From NCBI GenBank assembly GCA_036930585.1, contig GCA_036930585.1_3066.1: a DNA stretch of 64,000 nucleotides, one strand, 5' to 3'. This document shows positions 1 through 31,934 of the stretch, piece by piece. The notes beneath the pieces are model-generated. The model ran no database searches, was not told the origin of the DNA, and saw only the letters and a list, made by a program, of their open reading frames with translations. The position numbers and the translations under genes were made by a program. Source of the stretch: a phage. Within the stretch, counting starts at the first letter, position 1. Each line of letters starts with the position of its first letter.

Positions 1-226
1 CATATTCAAGAGGACCTTTTTCTGTTTCAATAAAGAAATCAAAATTTACTGTATTAAATTTACGTTCTTCCTTCACTAATTTAACTTGAGAAGATGAACG
101 GTCAATGTAAACCTTTTCAACTTCAAAACATGTTAAAATGCCATAATCATCAATCAAAGCTTTAGCCGCGTCTTGATCATATTTATATCCATTTTCAATG
201 GATGATACTTTCGCATAAAGAATCAT
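1..226 (-). CDS. hypothetical protein, partial (3' end beyond window start); start ATG at 226 overlaps upstream stop (ATGA)
   Basis: Open minus-strand frame from ATG at 224-226 running to position 1 (MILYAKVSSIENGYKYDQDAAK...); translationally coupled to ORF 229..627. Confidence 0.4.
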   Translation of the reverse strand, partial: MILYAKVSSIENGYKYDQDAAKALIDDYGILTCFEVEKVYIDRSSSQVKLVKEERKFNTVNFDFFIETEKGPLEY

Positions 227-228
227 TA

Positions 229-627
229 TCAGCCTTCATCAACAATAGTGTGAGTATTAGCATTTACGATTTGCCACCAATCAAAGCGATTAGAATCCAT
301 CGGTTTGTTTTCATTTTCTTTGATAATGTCACGGAGTTCATCTTCAGAGAATGCTTTAGCGATTAAATCGGTATACCCACCACGTGGATAATAATTATCA
401 CCTGCAAACAAAAGGAAATTTACCTTCCCGGAAGGAACATACGCTTCCTTAGGATACTTGTTTCCTGCGTGGTCAACCACTTCAATATAACGGTAAGGAA
501 TATCGGTTCTTTCAACCCATTGCCATGCCGCTGCAGGGGAATCGAAAGCATCTACACCTAAACGATTATCTTCATCTTTAGACGGATTATTTTCGTAATC
601 CGCATATACATAATATTCAACGTTCAT
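229..627 (-). CDS. hypothetical protein (132 aa)
   Basis: ORF track; start overlaps stop of upstream ORF (TAATG); no recognisable motif. Confidence 0.5.
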   Translation of the reverse strand: MNVEYYVYADYENNPSKDEDNRLGVDAFDSPAAAWQWVERTDIPYRYIEVVDHAGNKYPKEAYVPSGKVNFLLFAGDNYYPRGGYTDLIAKAFSEDELRDIIKENENKPMDSNRFDWWQIVNANTHTIVDEG

Positions 628-812
628 TATTCACCTTTAGAAATTTTATCCATAACAATAGCAATTAAACCAATTAAAAATGCTACTACAAGTGAAAACA
701 CATTTTCTGCTGTAGTCAATAATCCACATATAAATCCAACAAACATTGAAAAACTAAAAGCGGAAGCAGAAATTGCAATAGCAACATTTCGAATTAATTC
801 ACAACGTTTCAT
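627..812 (-). CDS. small hydrophobic protein, two predicted transmembrane helices (61 aa)
   Basis: ORF track; two hydrophobic stretches; RBS GAGGAGAATAAAATG; sits directly downstream of an early-promoter stem-loop. Confidence 0.5.
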   Translation of the reverse strand: MKRCELIRNVAIAISASAFSFSMFVGFICGLLTTAENVFSLVVAFLIGLIAIVMDKISKGE

Positions 813-870
813 TTTATTCTCCTCAGTAGTAGATAGGGTAATAGTATCACTACCCTATCTAAAAGTAAAC
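813..870 (-). promoter_or_regulatory. early-promoter stem-loop module (PeSL-like): GTTTAC -35, extended -10 TGATACTAT inside a 10-bp inverted repeat
   Basis: Plus-strand gtaaac at 865-870; inverted repeat agatagggta/taccctatct (831-860) with loop atagtatcac; orientation matches downstream minus-strand gene. Confidence 0.45.
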
Positions 871-1104
871 TTATTTTTTACGAAAAATTGATTTATTTTC
901 TGCTGCCCATTTTTCAATAACTGCAGCAGGACCAGTAACAACAATTTTATCACCGTAATCTTCTGCGGCGAGTTGACCGAAATTATCTAATGCATCACGA
1001 AGAACTCCATGAGGCATTTCACCCATTTTATCTTTCTTGCCAGTGTAAATAAACTCAACTTTTACATCAGCAGTTTCAGCAATAAATTCTTGGTAAGTTT
1101 TCAT
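871..1104 (-). CDS. internal-protein-like small protein with capsid-targeting-sequence-like N-terminus (MKTYQEFIAE); track ORF extends to 1116
   Basis: N-terminus MKTYQEFIAE matches the T4 internal-protein capsid targeting sequence as I recall it; ends in I-A-E, a gp21-protease-type site; located in the IP position next to 57B. Confidence 0.6.
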   Translation of the reverse strand: MKTYQEFIAETADVKVEFIYTGKKDKMGEMPHGVLRDALDNFGQLAAEDYGDKIVVTGPAAVIEKWAAENKSIFRKK

Positions 1105-1116
1105 TTTGATTTCCAT

Positions 1117-1180
1117 TTGGTTTTGTTTTGATAGGGTAATAGTATCACAACTAAAACCCTATGTAAACAACTTTGTGAAA
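1117..1180 (-). promoter_or_regulatory. early-promoter stem-loop module (PeSL-like)
   Basis: gtaaac at 1163-1168 (minus-strand GTTTAC), TGATACTAT -10 in loop of inverted repeat atagggt/accctat; near-identical 35-bp box tgtaaacaactttgtgaaattattttaaatcttct shared with 1491-1525. Confidence 0.45.
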
Positions 1181-1438
1181 TTATTTTAAATCTTCTAATC
1201 GTTTCTTCATCTTAGAACCATTTTTAGCAATTTCTCCTGCATCGGAGCATAATGCTAAAAGTGCTTTAACTTTAGTTTGGTCTCCTTTAAAAGATGAAGG
1301 ATCGACCGCAGCAGCAAGTTCTTTAATACGAGAGAAAAGACGCTCAGCTTCAGCTAAAGCCATTCCAAGCTTTACTTCCATACCGTGGGAAGATTCAGTG
1401 ATAGTAGTTTTTGTAGCAAACTCTTTGAAAGTTTTCAT
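1181..1438 (-). CDS. internal-protein-like small protein (85 aa) with CTS-like N-terminus MKTFKEFATK...ITE
   Basis: ORF track; N-terminal similarity to CTS pattern MKT(Y/F)(Q/K)EF; I-T-E candidate gp21 cleavage site; RBS AGGAAA upstream. Confidence 0.55.
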   Translation of the reverse strand: MKTFKEFATKTTITESSHGMEVKLGMALAEAERLFSRIKELAAAVDPSSFKGDQTKVKALLALCSDAGEIAKNGSKMKKRLEDLK

Positions 1439-1455
1439 TTTTATTTTCCTAATTA

Positions 1456-1511
1456 ATTTTGATGAGGTAATAGTATCACTACCTCATCAGTATGTAAACA
1501 ACTTTGTGAAA
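1456..1511 (-). promoter_or_regulatory. early-promoter stem-loop module (PeSL-like)
   Basis: gtaaac at 1494-1499; inverted repeat gatgaggt/acctcatc (1461-1488) enclosing GTGATACTATTACC. Confidence 0.45.
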
Positions 1512-2196
<685 letters not shown>

Positions 2197-2197
<1 letters not shown>

Positions 2198-2922
2198 TAT
2201 AGTACCTTTAGTGTATTTTTAATTTTAGAAAAAAGTTCTTCAAGAGAACCATCGTTTGTAATTACTAAATCGCCATCACGAATTGGCAATCCAGCTTCTG
2301 TAATATGTGTATCATTGGATTTTTGACCAGGACGAACTACATGAATTACTGTAGCACCCATCGCCCTAGCCGCATCCATTTCATGATCTTGACGGGTATC
2401 AGGAACGATATAATAATCATAACCTGAGTTAAATTTATCAAGATAATCTAAAGCAAATAATTTTACCCAGTACATGCGGTCGAAGTTATTAACAATCAAA
2501 TCCGTACCTAGGGCTTGCATCAGACGACGGACTGACCATTGATCTTCAATATTATTTATAACGTCAATAATCTTGTTAAATGCTACGGAATTAACTGATT
2601 CTTGTCCTTCGTCATCAAAAACAAACACACCTTTAATTGGGCTTTTACCATTAAGATAGCAAAATGCTTGTTCCATAATCGTGATTACTTCTAATTTAGT
2701 TAGATTTAAATTAGTCTCACGATCATAGTCAATTCCTTCAAACTCTTTACGAGTTAAGCAAGGATAGTCGGTATTTGCTGCAAATACTCCCCATGCATAA
2801 GCCAATGCATCCTTAATAGGACCAGCAAGTTGGTATTTAACTGCAGAATAATTGCTCATGATAAAATCAGCAGTAGTATCTTTTCCACTACGCTTTACAC
2901 CGCTTAAAAAGATTAGTTTCAT
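2197..2922 (-). CDS. 1: deoxynucleoside monophosphate kinase
   Basis: 241 aa, P-loop GVKRSGKDT near N-terminus, matches T4 gp1 length and position. Confidence 0.85.
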
Positions 2923-2971
2923 ATGTTTCTCCTCAAATTTAGTTAAGATTATAACACATGAAACTGAAGCA

Positions 2972-3502
2972 TTAAACTTCCGCTATAATTTTTCCATCTT
3001 TTTCTACTTGAAAATACGTATAAGGAATCGTTGCTGTACATACTAAAGCCGGGTCTGAATCTTCTGTGTAGCTAAATTCTACTTCAGATAGGTCAGAAAC
3101 CCAAGGCTTATAAAAATTTATTGACATCACGATTTCAGTTTTGCTATTATCTAAAATGTAAAGCGTAATGTATTCAGGACCTGTTTTTTGGGCAGTATTT
3201 TCACCTGTAAGATAGTTGCTAGTTCCTAGCATCCATTCATACATTCCTATCCATGACTTAAGTTCTTCATCAACTATAAATCTCACGATGAGTGGATCGT
3301 ACTCAAATGTAGCACCTGGACGTTGTGCTCGGCCCAGTCCAAACGGCCCAGTCACGGTATCAGTAACAGGTATTCTAATTCCTGGAATAGGAACTGACTG
3401 AGCATTTAAAGTAAAAGCAGATGTAGTATTACTATGTGGTATTGATACTACAAAGTTAGTTGTATTTGCTTGGTTAAAAATTTGTTGCAGTGCTTGCGAC
3501 AT
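2972..3502 (-). CDS. 3: tail completion / sheath stabiliser protein gp3
   Basis: 176 aa from internal ATG at 3502 (MSQALQQ..., RBS GAGGAA); track ORF starts 27 codons upstream at 3583; T4 order 1-3-2-4. Confidence 0.7.
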   Translation of the reverse strand: MSQALQQIFNQANTTNFVVSIPHSNTTSAFTLNAQSVPIPGIRIPVTDTVTGPFGLGRAQRPGATFEYDPLIVRFIVDEELKSWIGMYEWMLGTSNYLTGENTAQKTGPEYITLYILDNSKTEIVMSINFYKPWVSDLSEVEFSYTEDSDPALVCTATIPYTYFQVEKDGKIIAEV

Positions 3503-4896: not shown

Positions 4897-4919
4897 TATA
4901 AATAGATAATATATTTATA
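4897..4919. promoter_or_regulatory. divergent T4-type late promoters (TATAAATA) for gene 53 (+) and gene 4 (-)
   Basis: tataaata at 4897-4904 (+) and tatttata at 4912-4919 (= TATAAATA on minus). Confidence 0.55.
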
Positions 4920-30628: not shown

Positions 30629-30629
<1 letters not shown>

Positions 30630-30868
30630 TGGAAGGTTTAATTGAAGCTATTAAATCAAACGACCTCGTAGCCGCTCGTAAATTATTTGCTGAAGCCATG
30701 GCTGCAAGAACGACTGATTTAATTAAAGAAGAAAAAATCGCTATCGCTCGTAATTTCTTAATCGAAGGTGAAGAACCTGATGACGAGGATGATGACGAAG
30801 ACGAAGATAGTGATGATAAAGACGACAAAAAAGACAAGGACTCTGACGAAGACGAGGATGATGAATAA
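30629..30868 (+). CDS. 67: prohead core protein gp67
   Basis: 79 aa with poly-acidic C-terminus ([16 protein letters not shown]...). Confidence 0.85.
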
Positions 30869-31293
30869 TGCTTCTGATCCCTGAAACTCATGAATTAGTT
30901 CTCGAGAATGTCGAAGCACTTATTCCTGAAGCACAGGGTCGCTTTGACGAATTGTCTTCTGCTTTAAATAAAGACGATATAAATACAATTGTCGAGAATA
31001 TGCTTGATGATGAAACTGATTTAGCGGTTGCATTAGCTTCTATTAATGAAAATATGCCGTTAAATGAATTTATCGTTAAACATGTTTCTGCCCGTGGTGA
31101 AATTACTCGCACTAAAGATCGCAAAACCCGCGAACGTAATGCATTTCAAACTACCGGGTTGTCTAAAGCAAAACGTAGACAAATTGCTCGTAAAGCTACC
31201 AAAACGAAGATTGCCAATCCAGCAGGTCAATCTCGTGCTCAGCGTAAGCGTAAAAAAGCTCTTAAACGCCGTAAAGCATTAGGATTAAGCTAA
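30868..31293 (+). CDS. 68: prohead core protein gp68
   Basis: 141 aa, same as T4. Confidence 0.85.
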
Positions 31294-31931
31294 TGAATGA
31301 ACCCCAATTACTAATTGAAACTTGGGGTCAACCTGGCGAAATTATTGATGGCGTACCAATGCTTGAATCTCATGATGGAAAAGACTTAGGTTTAAAACCT
31401 GGTTTATACATCGAAGGAATATTCATGCAAGCGGAAGTCGTCAATAGAAATAAACGTCTTTATCCAAAACGTATATTAGAAAAAGCGGTAAAAGACTATA
31501 TTAATGAGCAAGTTTTAACTAAACAAGCTCTCGGAGAATTAAATCATCCTCCACGCGCTAATGTTGACCCGATGCAAGCCGCTATCATTATAGAAGATAT
31601 GTGGTGGAAAGGAAATGACGTATACGGACGAGCTCGTGTTATTGAAGGTGACCATGGTCCTGGAGATAAATTAGCAGCTAATATTCGTGCCGGATGGATT
31701 CCAGGAGTTTCTTCTCGTGGATTAGGTTCATTGACTGACACAAATAAAGGTTATCGTATCGTAAACGAAGGATTCAAATTAACTGTAGGTGTTGATGCAG
31801 TATGGGGTCCAAGTGCTCCAGATGCATGGGTAACTCCTAAGGAAATTACCGAATCACAGACGGCGGAAGCCGATACAAGTGCCGATGACGCCTATATGGC
31901 TCTCGCAGAGGCCATGAAAAAAGCGTTATAA
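31293..31931 (+). CDS. 21: prohead core protease gp21
   Basis: 212 aa, same as T4. Confidence 0.9.
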   Translation: MNEPQLLIETWGQPGEIIDGVPMLESHDGKDLGLKPGLYIEGIFMQAEVVNRNKRLYPKRILEKAVKDYINEQVLTKQALGELNHPPRANVDPMQAAIIIEDMWWKGNDVYGRARVIEGDHGPGDKLAANIRAGWIPGVSSRGLGSLTDTNKGYRIVNEGFKLTVGVDAVWGPSAPDAWVTPKEITESQTAEADTSADDAYMALAEAMKKAL

Positions 31932-31934
31932 ATA
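31927..31934 (+). promoter_or_regulatory. T4-type late promoter TATAAATA for gene 22
   Basis: tataaata overlapping gene 21 stop. Confidence 0.5.

Follow-up and report, generated by a model that had tools for sequence, protein, structure and literature searches.

The ip5 gene of a T4-like phage: a predicted internal head protein cassette with an IPI-type leader in the 57B-trna.4 slot

The stretch of DNA analysed in the current study (hereafter the window; 64,000 nucleotides) carries at positions 1181-1438, on the minus strand, an open reading frame of 85 codons with an ATG start and a stop at 1181-1183, whose product begins MKTFKEFATKTTITESSHG and reads in full translation (85 aa) MKTFKEFATKTTITESSHGMEVKLGMALAEAERLFSRIKELAAAVDPSSFKGDQTKVKALLALCSDAGEIAKNGSKMKKRLEDLK. 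The identification of this frame as ip5, an internal protein (IP) gene of the T-even phages, can be regarded as practically certain. The protein is 100% identical to RB15 Ip5 (CAA84462) and shares about 96-99% identity with the alleles of T2 and RB51; it is matched over its whole length (residues 1-85, E 1.2e-49) by PHROG 3499 ('internal head protein'), and the gene also occurs in T6 and PST. Besides, a 1601-nt query over the locus was 99.8-99.9% identical to dozens of records of Escherichia, Shigella and Yersinia Tequatrovirus phages, and genes 20, 67, 68, 21, 22, 23 and 24 lie further along the window, which, together with the neighbours of the locus, places the window in a T4-like (Tequatrovirus) genome. 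The genes around ip5 are arranged as follows:

229-627, minus strand: trna.3 (open reading frame and PHROG match)
627-812, minus strand: trna.4 (open reading frame and PHROG match)
871-1104, minus strand: ip6, a second IP-type gene in the adjoining cassette (77 aa; PHROG 8111 'internal virion protein', E 1.5e-52; leader MKTYQEFIAE/T, the slash marking the cut here and below)
1181-1438, minus strand: ip5 coding sequence (PHROG 3499)
1512-1970, minus strand: 57B (Pfam Acb1 PF23474, E 2.5e-60)
1967-2197, minus strand: 57A (Pfam GP57)
2197-2922, minus strand: gene 1 (dNMP kinase)

The label ip6 is used in the public annotations of JK08, T6, PST and VR26. For this gene the mechanical list of open reading frames gives an ATG at 1116 (871-1116, with the protein starting MEIK-MKTYQEFIAE...), while the annotations and the conserved leader favour the ATG at 1104; its mature product would be near-neutral (pI 6.5), as opposed to the basic internal proteins of T4. 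The gene directly upstream of ip5, 57B, is the anti-CBASS phosphodiesterase Acb1 and is 99.3% identical to T4 57B, so that the IP cassette slot adjoins another counter-defence gene. An overlapping plus-strand frame at 1398-1520 was regarded as spurious, and an inverted repeat inside ip5 (1199-1213 and 1291-1305; 15 nt, 87% complementary) as due to chance. A scan of window positions 1-3200 with Rfam, at E values up to 1, gave no match.

The window thus has a Tequatrovirus IP locus of the T6 type, in the order 57B, ip5, ip6 and trna.4, and the content of the slot between 57B and trna.4 varies among related phages:

The window, T6 and PST: ip5, ip6 (identical order 57B-ip5-ip6-trna.4)
T4: ipI
T2: ip5, ip7
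RB15: ip5, ip9, ip7, ip8
VR26 (Gaprivervirus): an open reading frame, ip9, ip5, ip6

The ip5 of T2, T6, RB15 and PST is the same gene as that of the window, the differences being a missing codon in T2 and the varying partner cassettes, and the T6 record states of its ip5 that it 'replaces ipI'. The T2 allele (MH751506.1) has one Ala codon fewer (AAAV to AAV, in the loop after helix 1) and otherwise differs from the window by 11 synonymous substitutions. An earlier reading made from the letters alone (the sequence-only reading) had proposed a second IP-like cassette gene in a promoter-flanked slot, and this agrees with the position of the frame between 57B and trna.4 next to ip6, with its PHROG 3499 match and with public annotation. 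Its further suggestion, that independent cassettes had been captured into this slot, is right, given the flanking repeats on both sides, and was already in print. Indeed, ip5 is a known gene, its name, leader, cassette flanks and presumed role being present in earlier work or in current annotations, and public records call it ip5, ipV or 'internal head protein'. Repoila et al. in 1994 are said to have named the gene and described its leader, cassette flanks and presumed role; our account of that work follows its GenBank record and the later papers that cite it.

The flanks of the cassette are built from a 71-nt direct repeat present in three copies, of which those at 1126-1196 and 1457-1527 are 87% identical. 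The elements read from these flanks are:

1447-1450, minus strand: ribosome-binding site AGGA, 8 nt upstream of the ip5 ATG, read from the sequence and kept in T4 ipI, RB15 and T2
1457-1527, minus strand: upstream PeSL-like repeat, with TTTACA (1498-1493), a spacing of 17 nt, TACTAT (1475-1470) and a stem-loop at 1460-1489 that overlaps the -10 element
1126-1196, minus strand: downstream PeSL-like repeat, with TTTACA (1167-1162), a spacing of 17 nt, TACTAT (1144-1139) and a stem-loop at 1131-1162
828-898, minus strand: third copy of the flanking repeat, between ip6 and trna.4, more diverged (61% identity to the reference copy), with a stem-loop

The early promoter, TTTACA-17-TACTAT with TG before it, was found twice by the promoter scan, and the copy in the downstream repeat is the predicted driver of ip6. 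The hairpins of the three repeat copies have z-scores of -2.9, -4.5 and -5.3, the upstream stem-loop folding at -20.5 kcal/mol (z -4.45) and that of the third copy at -21.1 kcal/mol (z -5.3). The upstream repeat is near-identical, with a few substitutions, to the 57B-ipI intergenic region of T4. This arrangement matches the PeSL consensus of PST and T4, TTTACW-N17-TAYWAT with a stem-loop (PMC4122927), and the same consensus and overlapping stem-loop of the PeSL cassettes (Arbiol 2010; Comeau 2014) are found here on both sides of each cassette. Arbiol et al. noted that Repoila et al. had seen this element around the IP loci, and considered the elements of the T-even IP loci to be analogues, not homologues, of the PeSLs of RB49 and phi1 (PMC2839356). 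Unlike the described PeSLs, however, the repeat of the window reaches into the end of the gene that precedes it: the upstream copy takes in the final five codons and the stop of 57B, and the downstream copy those of ip5.

A promoter-plus-stem-loop repeat of 71 nt can serve as recombination homology. On the minus strand, ip5 (1181-1196) and 57B (1512-1527) have in common their last five codons and stop, GAAGATTTAAAATAA, encoding EDLK and the stop, and this shared stretch may be a recombination footprint. The Ip5-like protein of Mosigvirus diverges from Ip5 right after ...RLE, where the shared repeat stretch begins, while the ip5 of VR26 also has a terminal EDLK but lacks the remainder of the repeat, which complicates the direction of transfer. 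Regarding the timing of expression, no late promoter was found directly upstream of ip5. The late-promoter motif TATAAATA is present in 25 copies in the window against 9.7 expected, a count reached by 0 of 100 shuffles, with examples at 2553-2560 (minus strand), 4912-4919 (minus strand) and 31927-31934 (plus strand). Late expression of ip5 probably comes by read-through from the minus-strand motif within gene 1 (2560-2553), and this motif could provide late read-through of 57A, 57B, ip5 and ip6 together.

The protein can be divided, on the basis of its leader, into the following predicted parts:

1394-1438, minus strand: propeptide, residues 1-15, MKTFKEFATKTTITE, an IPI-type capsid targeting sequence (CTS) that aligns with the T4 IPI leader in protein and in DNA
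1394-1402, minus strand: predicted gp21 tripeptide Ile13-Thr14-Glu15, the same ITE as at the T4 IPI cut site
1394-1396 and 1391-1393, minus strand: predicted cut between Glu15 and Ser16, placed at the sequence level
1184-1393, minus strand: predicted mature Ip5*, residues 16-85 (70 aa, 7.5 kDa, pI 9.2, 14% Lys, three-helix bundle)

The leaders compared, taken from the translated IP genes of T4 and of RB15 and T2, are these:

IPII and IPIII: MKTYQEFIAE/A
Ip6: MKTYQEFIAE/T
Ip9: MKTYQEFISE/A
Ip8: MKTYQKFIVE/A
Ip7: MKTFKEFINE/A
T4 IPI: MKTFKEFTSTTTPVSTITE/ATLT
Ip5 (window): MKTFKEFATKTTITE/SSHG

The sequence-only reading had noticed that the leader followed by SSHG resembles a CTS and gp21 site, which holds (F4, F7 and ITE15/S are all present), and had taken the leader for a degenerate, diverged form, which was mistaken, since it is an IPI-type leader minus four residues and homologous at the DNA level. 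The comparison that it had recommended, of the leader with CTS variants of other T4-like phages, led to the leader class of T4 IPI. The packaged IPI of T4 is cut from 95 aa to the 76-residue IPI* (PMC3012670), and the cut therefore falls after ITE19. The leader of Ip5 is four residues shorter than that of IPI, owing to a 12-nt indel, and has a few substitutions; its MKTFKEF is an exact match to T4 IPI and to Ip7. When T4 ipI is aligned with the ip5 DNA of the window, homology extends from the 3' end of 57B through the promoter, stem-loop and ribosome-binding site into the leader codons, with this 12-nt indel as the single one, and it ends at the ITE codons. Judged on these alignments, the Ip5 leader is of a second canonical class, that of T4 IPI, and is not degenerate. 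A start of the form M[KQ]T[FY]x[EDKT]F was found only in ip5 and ip6 among the window's 584 Met-initiated frames of 40 aa or more, whereas 0.003 were expected from composition; this excess and the match at the DNA level indicate that the resemblance of the leader reflects homology, and the chance similarity that the sequence-only reading had named as its own possible undoing is ruled out.

Studies of the CTS have described its function and its determinants at positions 4, 7, 8 and 10, targeting being reported to depend on positions 4 and 7 and processing on the residues around the cut (PMC9026906). Ip5 retains Phe4, Phe7 and Ile-x-Glu, and the xTE/SSHG junction is kept in all Ip5 alleles of Tequatrovirus and Gaprivervirus, despite their differing leader length. 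Moreover, ITE/S fits the [LI]xE motif at the gp21 cut positions of the window's gp23 (LTE65/A) and gp24 (LRE10/S), both of them known cut sites in T4, and ITE/S is present in the window's gp21 (KEITE/SQ) and gp22 too. Two more [LI]xE motifs lie in predicted helix 1 of mature Ip5, on the minus strand, namely LAE/A (1349-1357) and IKE/L (1319-1327), at residues 28-30 and 38-40. If the specificity of gp21 were purely sequence-based these internal motifs would be cut as well, and presumably they are shielded from the protease by the fold.

The same body is found behind several leaders in other phages. An Ip5-family gene is carried by 497 of 50,697 phage records, about 269 of which are at least 80% identical and located in the 57B-trna.4 slot, while about 228 are Mosigvirus genes, roughly 47% identical, that lie between e and denV, where T4 carries ipII and ipIII. 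Searches of protein databases gave only 5 near-identical Ip5 clusters with a word-indexed search and only 3 Ip5 representatives with an exhaustive HMMER search of 1.84 billion representatives (50% identity), and neither search returned a distant homologue with an annotation; the family is confined to relatives of the T-even phages. The leaders seen on the Ip5 body are:

The window: MKTFKEFATKTTITE/S
RB70: MKTYKEFATETIITE/S
VR26: MKTYQTFMTE/S
A further variant: MQTYQTFITE/S
Mosigvirus: MKTYSEFLSESILNE/A
A further variant: MKTYTDFLAE/S
A further variant: MKTYKEFTLSE/A

All seven have M1, T3, Y/F4 and F7, and a Glu right before the conserved body, which is the pattern of a functional propeptide and not of a relic. 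In addition, ip5 is under purifying selection, with a dN/dS of 0.06 against the VR26 allele (at a dS near saturation) and 11 synonymous and 0 non-synonymous differences from the T2 allele. The Ip5-like protein of Mosigvirus, of the RB69 group (for example NC_041864 gp147; 'RB69ORF127c'), has a mature body homologous to that of Ip5, at 47-55% identity (BLASTP E 1e-18), and its predicted helices are the same. It differs in its leader (MKTYSEFLSE-SILNE/A), in its longer C-terminus and in its location, its gene adjoining the lysozyme gene e within the e-denV IP locus that holds ipII and ipIII in T4. A homology of Ip5 with T4 IPII and IPIII, suggested by the presence of this homologue in their slot, was rejected (BLASTP E >1).

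Regarding the mature body, the sequence-only reading had described it as helical and Lys-rich, and both properties were borne out. The AlphaFold2 model of Ip5, obtained from a shallow alignment of 7 sequences with a mean pLDDT of 83, has three helices (15-44, 54-63 and 67-84) and a pLDDT above 90 in the body, with a disordered leader (pLDDT 53-56), and the full-length protein contains 15.3% Lys compared to 7.1% in the long open reading frames of the window. The net charge of Ip5* is only about +3. The searches gave no relatives of this fold outside its own family. Pfam had no model for Ip5, a sub-threshold match to DUF7890 (13 bits) being the only one, and NCBIfam gave no match. A profile search of the PDB sequences gave none with E below 0.05, the best (E 0.058) being to designed helical bundles, and Foldseek found no match with E below 6 in the PDB and only the Ip5 of VR26, a member of the same family, in BFVD. 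Mature Ip5 was also compared with Ip1*, Ip2* and Ip3*, with all pairwise BLASTP E values above 1 and no fold similarity, the mature bodies of different IP families being mutually unrelated; nor did the PDB and BFVD searches link it by sequence or fold to any characterised inhibitor.

A close counterpart is T4 IPI, which occupies the same slot as ip5 and shares with it a near-identical upstream region (57B end, promoter, stem-loop and ribosome-binding site) and a leader of the class MKTFKEF...TTxxITE, cut after ITE. Both mature proteins are small and basic (76 aa and pI 9.0 for IPI*, 70 aa and pI 9.2 for Ip5*), whereas their bodies show no sequence relationship (best BLASTP E 2.5) and IPI* is described as two beta-sheets flanked by helices (PMC3012670) while Ip5* is predicted to be all-alpha. 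With IPII and IPIII of T4, which have the canonical 10-residue CTS MKTYQEFIAE, Ip5 has in common M1, K2, T3, an aromatic residue at position 4, F7 and a leader that ends in Glu; it differs from them in its unrelated body and in a longer leader (15 residues, Lys at position 10), which shifts the predicted cut to Glu15. IPII and IPIII are packaged and injected small proteins from a polymorphic locus with promoter-type flanks, a description that would also fit Ip5, with packaging and injection predicted in its case.

The head machinery of the window is close to that of T4. The prohead protease that would remove the Ip5 propeptide is encoded as follows:

31293-31931, plus strand: gene 21 (212 aa, 99.5% identical to T4 gp21)

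The identity to T4 is 97.8% for gp22, 100% for gp68 and 93.8% for gp67. The last of these (30629-30868, plus strand; 79 aa compared to 80 aa in T4) has diverged most among the core and scaffold proteins compared, and its differences presumably sit in the acidic, Asp/Glu-rich tail. From the biology of IPI and IPIII in T4 and the near-identical gp21, gp22 and gp68, we infer that Ip5 would be packaged, cut and injected. The gene would be expressed from its own early promoter and, late in infection, by read-through; the 15-residue propeptide would attach Ip5 to the scaffolding core while the prohead assembles; gp21 would cut after Ile-Thr-Glu15; and the 70-residue basic Ip5* would stay in the head with the DNA and enter the host with it. 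In the first seconds of infection Ip5* might then, by analogy with other internal proteins, bind and neutralise a host defence directed against the incoming modified DNA. The leader and the machinery together make packaging and processing of Ip5 very probable, and cleavage by gp21 after Glu15 is strongly suggested by the junction; virion proteomics on the presence of Ip5 in virions or on its cleavage was not found in the literature searched.

The known target of T4 IPI* is the GmrSD of CT596. Recent work has shown that Ip1, Ip2 and Ip3 each inhibit one specific GmrSD type IV restriction enzyme, with no cross-protection, IPII and IPIII acting on GmrSD-ECOR21 and GmrSD-ECOR17 (PMC12373910). In the same study, published in 2025, ip4-10, ip5 included, gave no reproducible inhibition against a panel of GmrSD variants (PMC12373910, Supplementary Fig. 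9), and T2 and T6, which both carry ip5, were restricted by GmrSD-ECOR21 and GmrSD-ECOR17 (PMC12373910). The null result of this screen, the restriction of T2 and T6 and the uninformative fold argue against a simple extension of the analogy with Ip1-3. We nevertheless lean towards an anti-defence role for Ip5*, by analogy with its T4 counterparts and in view of the anti-CBASS gene 57B next to it. The likeliest target would be a type IV (GmrSD-like) nuclease variant outside the panel or another early-acting system, a target within the GmrSD family taken by itself seeming to us rather unlikely. With 497 of 50,697 records, Ip5 ranks among the commonest internal proteins, and finding its target would extend the arms race known for Ip1-3 and GmrSD and would aid host-range prediction for therapeutic T4-like phages.

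Other explanations of the locus were also considered. Internal proteins have classically been viewed as basic filler, and Ip5 could be packaged and processed and yet act as a generic 'filler' that neutralises the charge of the DNA or aids its condensation or ejection, without a specific target. Ip5* is indeed basic (pI 9.2, 14% Lys), like IPI*, IPII* and IPIII*, its body has no recognisable fold relatives, and the screen of ip4-10 yielded no target; however, a non-specific polycation has no need of a well-packed three-helix fold kept at a dN/dS of 0.06, the net charge is only about +3, and the neighbouring Ip6* is neutral (pI 6.5). The gene-for-gene replacement seen among phages with near-identical heads points instead to selection by host range, and all three T4 internal proteins, long regarded as fillers, proved to be specific inhibitors (PMC12373910). 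For these reasons we consider the filler explanation improbable.

It is less probable still, and in our judgement very improbable, that Ip5 is an ordinary early cytoplasmic protein, neither packaged nor cleaved, whose leader is a relic of cassette recombination. Directly upstream of ip5 there is an early promoter only, but T4 IP genes that have this type of promoter give packaged products. The leader DNA lies within the stretch common to T4 ipI and could persist as recombination homology, but its protein sequence is conserved on diverged alleles, at another locus and within other DNA flanks, with M1, T3, Y/F4, F7 and the Glu before the body retained even in the 47%-identical Mosigvirus homologues, and in T4, whose gp21 and scaffold are essentially those of this phage, the almost identical leader of IPI is functional. 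The broken ip5-like gene of Mosigvirus HX01, which indicates that the gene is dispensable, speaks for a relic as well. Finally, the idea that the frame is not a gene at all and resembles a targeting leader by chance, which its small size and the lack of a Pfam or NCBIfam match might suggest, is refuted, with a probability close to nil, by the 497 phage records, the purifying selection, the promoter and ribosome-binding site, the confident predicted fold and the expectation of 0.003 leaders by chance.

Taken as a whole, the locus is likely to be best explained by ip5 being an interchangeable IP cassette whose product is packaged, processed and injected and acts against host defence. A more specific proposal, to which we give somewhat less than an even chance, starts from the joining of the same three-helix body to at least two leader classes and its placement in both IP loci. 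According to this proposal leader and body would be modular, the propeptide DNA would serve both as capsid address and as 5' recombination arm, and Ip5* would be an injected inhibitor of a defence outside the tested GmrSD clusters, either an unsampled type IV enzyme or another early-acting system. As to the copy in Mosigvirus HX01 (NC_018855), the Ip5-like gene next to e is annotated as two short open reading frames (41 and 33 codons) and gives a two-piece tblastn match, so that it looks like a disrupted copy, which fits dispensability on some hosts.
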